64,000 nt of DNA from Candidatus Bathyarchaeia archaeon (GTDB taxonomy: Archaea; Thermoproteota; Bathyarchaeia; 40CM-2-53-6). The stretch spans positions 576,001 to 640,000 of the forward strand of contig JBEKFP010000002.1 of NCBI GenBank assembly GCA_050013255.1, in the 5' to 3' direction. The notes beneath the pieces are model-generated. The model did no database searches and was not told where the DNA came from. It saw nothing but the letters and a program-made list of their open reading frames with translations. The translations under genes were made by a program, and so were the position numbers. The first letter of the stretch is position 1. Every line of letters starts with the position of its first letter. Below, piece by piece: positions 55,316 to 56,978 of this stretch.

Positions 55316-56595
55316 TTTGATTTTCCCTTCGCGGCCGCTACGATCGTGACGATGTCCCGGTCTTTCAACTTATAATCTGCAGGCAACCGAATCTTGGTTC
55401 GCGCGTCAACCGCGTAAAGCATAGTCTTCGCCAAATCGGTATGGACTTGGCCTGCCAGGTCGCCGACTGAAGCGTTGTAGGGAACGAGGAAGACGTCGGG
55501 GAGCACGTTGCCTTTCCTGTCAGCTAATCTTTCAATATCCTCGACTGGGTAGACAACGTTCATACTTAACAGCTTGAAGACGCAGGTGTTGAGTGCGAAC
55601 TGCACGCCTGTTCGAATCCATTTCGAGAAAACACGCTGCTCAACATAGGTCAAGGCCGCCCTCTGCTCAGCCGTCAACTTATCCTTGTCTTTGACCCTGA
55701 AAACTTCCTCGCCGGGAATGTACTCAACGTAACCTTTCTGCTCCGCGCGGCGTAAAGCTAATTCCGCGTCACTCGACGCGGGGAGTACGAATGCCTGGCC
55801 AAATTCCTTCACGAGGTTCACGTAATTCTTATCCGCGGGTGCGAGGTCCATCTTGTTCGCGATTATGTGGGTCGGCTTCGAGATTTGCCTAATACTCTTC
55901 GCGAAGCCCCAAACGTCTTCATGGCTCCACCGCCCGAGGTCTTTGTCTGCAAGGGCGTTCTCCTCCAAAGCCCTCGCAACATGTTCGCCGGTAATCTTCA
56001 GCCCAGCTAGGTCCTGCGTGAAGAGCCGGTCAACGGACGAACCTTTCTTGGCATGTTTTTTTAATTTCTTGATGGCCTTCTCAACTATTTTGGCGAACCA
56101 GCGAACCAACTCTTCTTCAATGTCGTAGACGTCAGCGACAGGGTTCCCCATCCCCGGCTTTGTGAGTTTTCCATCCGCGTCCACGCTACCCGACGCGTCC
56201 GCTATGTGGATGAGAGCATCCGCTTGTGATGCTACGCTCAGGAATTGCGTACCGAGGCCCTTTCCCTTCCATGAACCTTTGATTAGGCCGGGCAGGTCGA
56301 TGAGCTGGACGGGGATGAACCGAGCGCCTTCGATGCAAGATGAATTCCTAGGATTATCCTTGACACCCATCTCTCTGCACACGCAGATCGTCTTGACGTA
56401 CGCTTGGCCAACTTTTGGTTTCTTGGTCGTGAAGGGGTAGGTTGAGACGGGAGCGCTGAGTAGGGTTGCCGCGTTGAAGAAGGTGGTTTTCCCCGCGTTG
56501 GTTTTCCCGATGAGCCCAATCTTGAGCAAGGGCGATCGGCTAGAATTCTCGCTTTGCGGTATCACTACTTGACGGGCCTCACCGGAATCAGCCAA
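55312..56595 (-). CDS. Obg/YchF-related GTPase (archaeal Ygr210 type) with TGS domain
   Basis: GKTNAGKTT, YPFTT, DLPG, NKMD, C-terminal HTDL..LKDRDIV. Confidence 0.9.
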   Translation of the reverse strand: MADSGEARQVVIPQSENSSRSPLLKIGLIGKTNAGKTTFFNAATLLSAPVSTYPFTTKKPKVGQAYVKTICVCREMGVKDNPRNSSCIEGARFIPVQLIDLPGLIKGSWKGKGLGTQFLSVASQADALIHIADASGSVDADGKLTKPGMGNPVADVYDIEEELVRWFAKIVEKAIKKLKKHAKKGSSVDRLFTQDLAGLKITGEHVARALEENALADKDLGRWSHEDVWGFAKSIRQISKPTHIIANKMDLAPADKNYVNLVKEFGQAFVLPASSDAELALRRAEQKGYVEYIPGEEVFRVKDKDKLTAEQRAALTYVEQRVFSKWIRTGVQFALNTCVFKLLSMNVVYPVEDIERLADRKGNVLPDVFLVPYNASVGDLAGQVHTDLAKTMLYAVDARTKIRLPADYKLKDRDIVTIVAAAKGKSN

Positions 56596-56655
56596 AATCC
56601 ATATAGCAACTGGCTATGCGTGACTGGGATGGGGCCGCCTTGTCGGTTCCGATGT

Positions 56656-56884
56656 GGGGCCGTAGACACAGTGACCATTCGGGAGTGACGGGCTCTAGCC
56701 AGGGATGACGACAGGGACACGTTCCCGCCAAGGGCTCCAGAAGACCAAACCTTAACGGGTTTGCGGACCTGAACGGAATGACGAACTTCAGGAGCGAAGA
56801 AACCCGTAGACATGACGGCATGGCGGAAGTCGAGGGTTCAAAATGGTTCACCCCAGAACCATGAGAATCCCTTCGGCCCCACCA
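56656..56884 (+). tRNA. tRNA-Trp(CCA) with five introns (10/11, 28/29, 37/38, 45/46, 59/60)
   Basis: Exons 56656-65, 56694-712, 56732-40, 56802-09, 56829-42 and 56868-84 join to a 77-nt cloverleaf; each intron has BHB geometry. Confidence 0.88.
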
Positions 56885-56978
56885 CAATTTAGCACCGTTT
56901 ACTGTAAGTATGCAAAGTATTTTCTGTCAATCCTATACCAATAAACAGAGACCGCGGCATTTGCATCTCGTATGACCG

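Follow-up and report, generated by a model that had tools for sequence, protein, structure and literature searches.

A putative single-copy tRNA-Trp(CCA) gene of a Bathyarchaeia archaeon interrupted by five BHB introns

The window analyzed here (the whole stretch of 64,000 nucleotides) contains a 383-nt gap that separates a minus-strand gene for an Obg-like GTPase from the gene of a Rieske protein. Among named records, those closest to the GTPase were from Candidatus Bathyarchaeia MAGs of SPRUCE peat and Danish soils. The gap includes the plus-strand segment at 56656–56884, and the question is whether this segment is a working tRNA gene, as proposed in the initial annotation, where it was read as a tRNA-Trp(CCA) gene with five BHB introns. 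The coordinates and bases given there matched exactly on re-reading. Judged from the sequence, and with a probability of about 0.9, we consider this segment to be a functional, single-copy tRNA-Trp(CCA) gene of an uncultured peat or soil Bathyarchaeia archaeon whose five protein-spliced introns lie at tRNA positions 10/11, 28/29, 37/38, 45/46 and 59/60. This agreement with the initial annotation is based on the spliced cloverleaf, the conservation of the gene in orthologs, the precise presence or absence of individual introns, the statistics of the BHB motifs, compensatory changes, a pair of EndA proteins of the (alpha-beta)2 type, and the failure of ARAGORN and Rfam to report the unspliced locus. 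The tRNA gene is overlapped on the opposite (minus) strand by open frames of 82 aa and 99 aa (window positions 56565–56887); both are most likely spurious, and they could be mis-annotated as hypothetical proteins.

The proposed gene consists of six exons on the plus strand. Exon 1 (56656–56665) supplies tRNA positions 1–10, exon 2 (56694–56712) positions 11–28, which include the D arm, position 26 and positions 27–28, and exon 3 (56732–56740) positions 29–37 with the anticodon CCA at 56737–56739. Exon 4 (56802–56809) covers positions 38–45, exon 5 (56829–56842) positions 46–59, and exon 6 (56868–56884) positions 60–76, with an encoded CCA end at 56882–56884. Exon 3 was invariant in 42 sequences from across the class. 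When ARAGORN was run on the joined exons, the 77-nt product was reported as a tRNA-Trp(cca) cloverleaf, as the initial annotation had predicted. The spliced 77-mer has the canonical features U8, A14, G18G19, U33, the T loop GUUCAAAUC and A73-CCA, and its D loop contains one extra base in Sprinzl numbering. The cloverleaf has a calculated energy of −29.8 kcal/mol, and the minimum free energy structure given by RNAfold for the mature 77-mer is a different one.

The five introns were analyzed for the BHB motif at each junction. Central helices with the quoted bases, 3-nt bulges and cuts after the second base had been claimed earlier for all five, and each was recovered, with 4/4, 3/4, 3/4, 4/4 and 4/4 pairs for introns 1 to 5. 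Intron 1 (56666–56693, 28 nt, 10/11) has a relaxed BHB with the central helix CCGU/ACGG, an inner helix CAC/GUG and a weak outer helix. Intron 2 (56713–56731, 19 nt, 28/29) has the central helix GACG/CGCC and the inner helix GGGA/UUCC. Intron 3 (56741–56801, 61 nt), located at the canonical 37/38 site, has a BHB that is weak in this genus, made up of CUCC/GAAG with one C-A mismatch and 3 bp of the anticodon stem, and lacks an inner helix beside the bulge. Intron 4 (56810–56828, 19 nt, 45/46) has the central helix CCGU/GCGG, with one G-U pair, the inner helix CAUG/CAUG and no outer helix. Intron 5 (56843–56867, 25 nt, 59/60) is the only one with both flanking helices, a strict hBHBh' motif formed by 5 bp of the T stem, the central helix UUCA/UGAG with one G-U pair, and an inner helix of 6 bp. 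The outer helices of introns 1, 2 and 4 comprise 2, 1 and 0 bp, respectively. These three introns and intron 3 are relaxed BHB forms, which (alpha-beta)2 and epsilon2 enzymes are known to cut (PMC4033280).

The positions of the splice sites are constrained in two ways. For introns 1, 2 and 4, they are set by the exon sequence alone, while introns 3 and 5 could be placed in 2 and 3 registers, respectively, and a BHB forms only at 37/38 and 59/60. The motifs were then compared with chance by holding the junctions fixed and shuffling each intron 200,000 times, with the observed central plus inner helix as the target. The target was reached by 260, 67, 24880, 29 and 0 shuffles for introns 1 to 5, which corresponds to p values from 1e-3 to below 5e-6 for four of the introns and to p = 0.12 for intron 3, whose BHB is therefore weak on its own. 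RNAfold predictions for 229-nt and 256-nt precursors did not recover all five BHBs at once, which says little given that the bulges of these motifs are protein-stabilised.

Orthologs were collected by a DNA search of 61 related genomes. The locus was found in 53 of them, and 24 complete orthologs from the same order were compared. The comparison of orthologous loci proposed in the initial annotation showed the same five intron positions in 22 of these 24, and the BHB geometry at the five junctions was also kept. The exons differed at 0–2 of the 77 positions across the 24 orthologs, while the introns were 39–100% identical, varied in length, and occurred in 11–22 distinct versions each. The central helices stay paired across the distinct orthologs, and compensatory pair changes (for example AU/GC/UA and UA/CG) were seen in three of the inner helices, those of intron 1, intron 2 and intron 5. 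Alleles that lack an intron exactly at the proposed boundaries were found for intron 1 (L021 and L027), for intron 2 (L038, L039, L046, L053 and others), for intron 4 (L037, L040, L041 and L052), and for intron 5 (ten metagenome contigs with an identical T arm). A second layout with five introns was seen in L026 (family f6) and L030 (family f5), both from this order, in which the 10/11 intron is missing and a 34–35-nt intron in the D loop (about 17/18) accompanies those at 28/29, 37/38, 45/46 and 59/60. In other orders of the class, the number of introns per tRNA-Trp gene ranges from two up to four or five, the highest value being uncertain for one locus, L036. One relative, G013, has two full copies with five introns on different contigs (G013:C21:4857–5156 and G013:C19:73417–73715), perhaps through a duplication or because the bin is mixed.

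The initial annotation had also claimed that standard annotators miss this gene, and ARAGORN and Rfam were indeed silent on the unspliced locus. In the unspliced window, ARAGORN reported no tRNA and Rfam no family at its gathering score; when E values up to 10 were admitted at the locus, the sole match was to a lncRNA and is meaningless. Across the genome, ARAGORN with introns allowed reported 30 genes and the Rfam tRNA model gave 19 matches, with none for Trp and none at 56656–56884 in either case. A further check proposed at that stage was a search for another tRNA-Trp in the genome, and none was found with ARAGORN, with Rfam, or when the mature sequence was used as a BLAST query, which matched other tRNAs only in their T arms. 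The anticodon loop had two 12-mer matches, which were considered as a second tRNA-Trp and were rejected because the flanking sequence was non-tRNA on inspection. A permissive scan of the genome for anticodon arms with CCA returned 450 candidates and was noisy. The spliced 38-mer that spans junctions 2–5 was absent from metagenome contigs, in which mature tRNAs are seldom assembled. When tRNA genes were sought through an acceptor stem, a T arm and CCA, about 38 candidates were obtained, of which one is 78 nt long and the rest are 93–229 nt, the tRNA-Trp gene being the longest. From these lengths it follows that nearly every tRNA gene of this genome is interrupted.

The region upstream of the gene contains two further elements on the plus strand. 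A TATA-like element, CCATATAGC, is located at 56599–56607 and is conserved in the genus according to an upstream alignment made by eye; its position suggests that it is the promoter. About 25–30 nt downstream of it, at 56630–56637, lies an 8-nt exact direct repeat, UGGGGCCG, that is 25 nt upstream of G1 and copies the base before G1 together with the 5′ strand of the acceptor stem. Given this spacing, the transcript probably starts at the copy, which could form 8 bp with the 3′ acceptor strand and the discriminator. RNAfold of the transcript with its leader paired the copy, and not the real 5′ strand, to the 3′ acceptor strand. Each of the 22 orthologs in which the 10/11 intron occurs has a GGGG[CU]C. 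segment at −12 to −31 that forms 6–7 of 7 pairs with the 3′ acceptor strand, and a full 7/7 match was found in none of 21 tRNA-Trp genes without this intron, a co-occurrence counted over related orthologs that are not independent samples. In the leader variant GGGGUCG, pairing is preserved through G-U.

These observations bear on two other readings of the locus. If the upstream GGGGCCG copy were the true first exon, a sixth intron would occupy 56638–56662, and the intron count and boundaries given above would be wrong. The exact 8-nt repeat would make the product of such splicing identical to the one proposed, and the distance from the TATA-like element to the copy resembles that from TATA to G1 in genes without a copy. 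However, none of the 9 possible registers gave a central helix of at least 3/4 pairs along with an inner helix of at least 3 bp, the copies in orthologs diverge from exon 1 after 6–7 nt (GGGGUCG, GGGGCCU and GGGGCCGAAGA), and the presence of RNase P RNA means that a leader is removable, so that we consider a sixth intron to be very improbable. We give even less credence to the idea that the segment is a decaying pseudogene or a chance decomposition, with the tRNA-Trp of this organism coming from elsewhere, such as an unassembled or split gene. Such a gene could have been missed, as the assembly is in three contigs with 8.55% estimated contamination. Against this, a search of the genome for other Trp candidates found none, and in 53 of the 61 relatives no strong match was obtained apart from this locus. 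Moreover, the exons are invariant across the order while the introns vary with compensatory substitutions, a pattern that indicates purifying selection on the spliced product.

For the leader copy, a different role may be tentatively proposed from its pairing. By holding the 3′ acceptor strand, the copy would act as a decoy that leaves the real 5′ strand of the tRNA-Trp free to form the BHB of intron 1. Seven tRNA genes of this genome (G000) with an insert at 8–11 were classified by reading by eye, and the coordinates given for their leader segments outside the window are approximate. Five genes besides tRNA-Trp have leaders that pair over 7–10 bp with their own 3′ ends: a Phe gene at G000:C1:1125765 (leader segment C1:1125752–1125761) and the genes at C1:66537 (C1:66517–66524), C1:26410 (C1:26577–26586, minus strand), C2:242772 (C2:242760–242766) and C1:524981 (C1:525191–525198, minus strand). 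No leader match was found for the remaining early-intron gene, at G000:C1:1244030, which counts against the decoy idea. Where the start of the D arm is intact, in about 30 tRNA genes, leader pairing reached at most 7 bp and was mostly 3–5 bp. A broader and still more tentative proposal is that tRNA genes of this lineage with a first intron at 8–11 carry a cis-acting decoy leader, which would be displaced after splicing and removed by RNase P as the last step. In the papers searched, no description of such a decoy leader was found. If it exists, it would be a previously undescribed RNA switch in which intron removal is coupled to the processing of the ends, and the persistence of introns at sites overlapping the acceptor stem would then have an explanation.

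The genome was also analyzed for the machinery that such a precursor would require. Two EndA paralogs are encoded (L031:1213–1782 and L032:1204–1764), each with N and C domains. The best match of the 190-aa EndA was the catalytic subunit of A. pernix (3p1z_B, 1.5e-38, full length), and the alignment runs ungapped through the Crenarchaea-specific loop region, which is linked to broad specificity, with the Y/H/K context kept. The 187-aa EndA had weak matches to endonuclease structures and apparently lacks the His, and it is probably the structural subunit. Based on these sequences, the two proteins are predicted to form a heterotetramer of broad specificity, in line with the earlier suggestion that a relaxed-specificity endonuclease is likely: a pair of the (alpha-beta)2 type is encoded, and its specificity is deduced from the sequence. 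Aeropyrum pernix, whose (alpha-beta)2 EndA is known (PDB 3P1Z and 3AJV), has the same combination of a catalytic subunit and a second, divergent paralog. RtcB, RNase P RNA, fibrillarin, Nop5 and proteins of the L7Ae family are also encoded in the genome. The RtcB match is split by about 1.4 kb into two parts (profile positions 1–60 and 49–426) within one frame of 1039 aa (G000:C1:110968–113778, minus strand), for which an intein in the RtcB gene would be the simplest explanation.

With these components, processing of the precursor can be pictured as follows. Transcription would start from the TATA-like box near 56600 and give a leader of about 25 nt, the heterotetrameric (alpha-beta)2 EndA would cut every intron in both of its 3-nt bulges, RtcB would ligate the exons, and RNase P, whose RNA is present, would take off the leader. 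For introns 3 and 5, the stems of the cloverleaf would serve as the outer helix. For introns 1, 2 and 4, the 3′ part of the intron would pair with four exon bases that become part of the acceptor, D or anticodon stem in the mature tRNA. On its exon side, the central helix includes acceptor positions 5–7 for intron 1, the 3′ strand of the D stem for intron 2, and CCGU(40–43) of the anticodon stem for intron 4. The initial annotation had concluded from the short exons that splicing must be ordered, and this part did not hold. The core of each BHB consists of 4 exon nucleotides, 2 bulge nucleotides, the intron, with a hairpin of its own and four bases that pair back to the exon, and 1 nucleotide of the next exon, and thus lies within one exon-intron unit, so that short exons alone force no order and all five cores could in principle form in the primary transcript. 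In the intron 3 BHB, the anticodon stem contributes three pairs, its remaining two being split off by intron 2. Some cores are mutually exclusive or compete with stems of the cloverleaf. The central helix of intron 4, for instance, excludes the anticodon stem that intron 3 needs, and the precursor would therefore have to refold between cuts. This is a weaker statement than an obligatory order and points in the same direction, with no fixed order implied.

Intron 3 differs from the others in the extent of its conservation. Every one of the 50 tRNA-Trp loci that were retrieved for the class contained it, and the 42 distinct sequences among them share an invariant core that reads GGGUUUGC.GAC, a variable loop, G.AUGA.GA and U.C.GGAGC. 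On the plus strand of this locus, the core comprises three elements. Antisense element 1, ACGGGUUUG, at 56755–56763, can pair with the last two intron bases and A38–U43, which places the fifth base upstream of a D'-like box opposite C39; in the alignment, its 8 pairs had 97% of cells paired, and 2 pairs were changed on both sides. It is followed at 56764–56784 by a K-turn with a D'-like CGGA (56764–67), a C-stem CC/GG (56768–69/56775–76) and a C'-like AUGACGA (56778–84). The K-turn motif (C.GA, CC-loop-GG and RAUGA.GA) is invariant in the 42 sequences, the loop itself being variable. Antisense element 2, the 12-nt ACUUCAGGAGCG, occupies 56785–56800 together with the AAGA that comes after it, and can pair with G31–G37 and the first intron bases. 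Its 9–10 pairs were 90% paired, and the fifth base upstream of the D-like box is opposite C34. This terminal D-like box is AAGA here, CUGA in L017, and GUGA, UUGA or GGGA in other lineages.

The guide-like fold of intron 3 had 93.9% of the alignment cells paired, compared with 24–52% in slid controls and 87.8% for the competing BHB fold, and five of its pairs were changed on both sides. In L051, for example, the guide is altered together with its target, which lies in the 3′ strand of the anticodon stem. Before its removal, intron 3 may thus act as a box C/D-like guide, with the K-turn bound by L7Ae along with Nop5 and fibrillarin. By analogy with Haloferax, it would guide 2′-O-methylation of C34 and C39, a proposal for which we regard the chances as roughly balanced. 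Among the features of a box C/D RNA, the K-turn, the antisense elements and the L7Ae, Nop5 and fibrillarin proteins are present and canonical terminal C and D (CUGA) boxes are not; a C box (RUGAUGA) was sought in the 5′ part of the intron across the alignment, and none was conserved. An alternative, which we consider possible though somewhat doubtful, is that the core is a folding or protein-binding element, such as a K-turn with bound L7Ae by which the precursor is organised for splicing or the excised circle is stabilised. The invariant K-turn beside an unrecognisable C box and a degenerate D box would suit such an element, the antisense segments could equally just hold an alternative fold of the precursor, and S. 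solfataricus's 65-nt tRNA-Trp intron, in which consensus boxes are absent, is reported to form a very stable circle all the same (PMC3326292). On the other hand, the fifth-nucleotide rule points to positions 34 and 39, both of which are methylated through the intron in Haloferax (PMC3326292), the spacing C'-12 nt-NNGA is retained in many lineages, and the box in L017 is a canonical CUGA.

Introns 1 and 4 resemble each other in their sites and ends. Both are preceded by CCGUAG, and both end with (G/A)CGG and two bases. In a related locus, L024 (G043:C5, gene at about L024:1461–1699), introns 1 and 4 are identical at 16 of 17 positions, and both again follow CCGUAG. These resemblances would fit an intron having been copied within one gene to another site, where it finds the same four exon bases with which to build its central helix. 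Transposition of this kind has been suggested for introns of Thermoproteales (Fujishima 2010, cited in PMC4033280), and the 6-nt target shared by introns 1 and 4 is a clue to how such introns spread.

In summary, an essential and apparently single-copy tRNA is, in this genome, encoded by a gene that is two-thirds intron and that neither ARAGORN nor the Rfam tRNA model detects. Because such genes escape the finders, the tRNA counts used for judging genome quality will be too low. The leader element that tracks an acceptor-proximal intron provides a testable handle. Extreme fragmentation of tRNA genes, in print for Thermoproteales and Asgard archaea, thus extends to Bathyarchaeia, a group that soil and peat contain in abundance. 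A literature search found no paper on tRNA introns of Bathyarchaeia.

The closest precedents are found in three groups of archaea. In Thermoproteales (Pyrobaculum, Thermofilum and Caldivirga; Sugahara 2007/2008, as summarized in PMC4033280), tRNA genes are likewise described with short introns at non-canonical sites that have BHB or relaxed motifs, with a broad-specificity (alpha-beta)2 EndA, and with similar introns at different sites that suggest transposition. These organisms are hyperthermophiles with at most three introns per gene, whereas the gene described here has five and belongs to peat and soil Bathyarchaeia. The initial annotation had taken three introns as the archaeal maximum; this agrees with the number given in the review (PMC4033280) and is superseded by an Asgard preprint of October 2026, according to which tRNA genes there contain up to five intervening sequences (10.64898/2026.10.13.758758). 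The five introns found here thus apparently tie the highest count reported for any tRNA gene and extend a known phenomenon. As the preprint describes them, most Asgard tRNA genes are interrupted, many of them by D-arm insertions that annotators missed; the present gene is from another phylum, and that census is computational, with a main text that does not include Bathyarchaeia (10.64898/2026.10.13.758758). For intron 3, the comparison is with the intron of the Haloferax volcanii pre-tRNA-Trp, which is reported to be a box C/D guide for Cm34 and Um39 (PMC3326292, where Clouet d'Orval 2001 and Singh 2004 are cited). The two introns share the tRNA, the 37/38 site and antisense elements directed at positions 34 and 39. 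They differ in that only the C'/D'-like K-turn is clear here, the D box is degenerate, and position 39 is C rather than U. With 61 nt, intron 3 is close in size to the 65-nt intron of S. solfataricus, and its guide-like core, found across the class, ties Bathyarchaeia to the tRNA-Trp introns of Haloferax and Sulfolobus.
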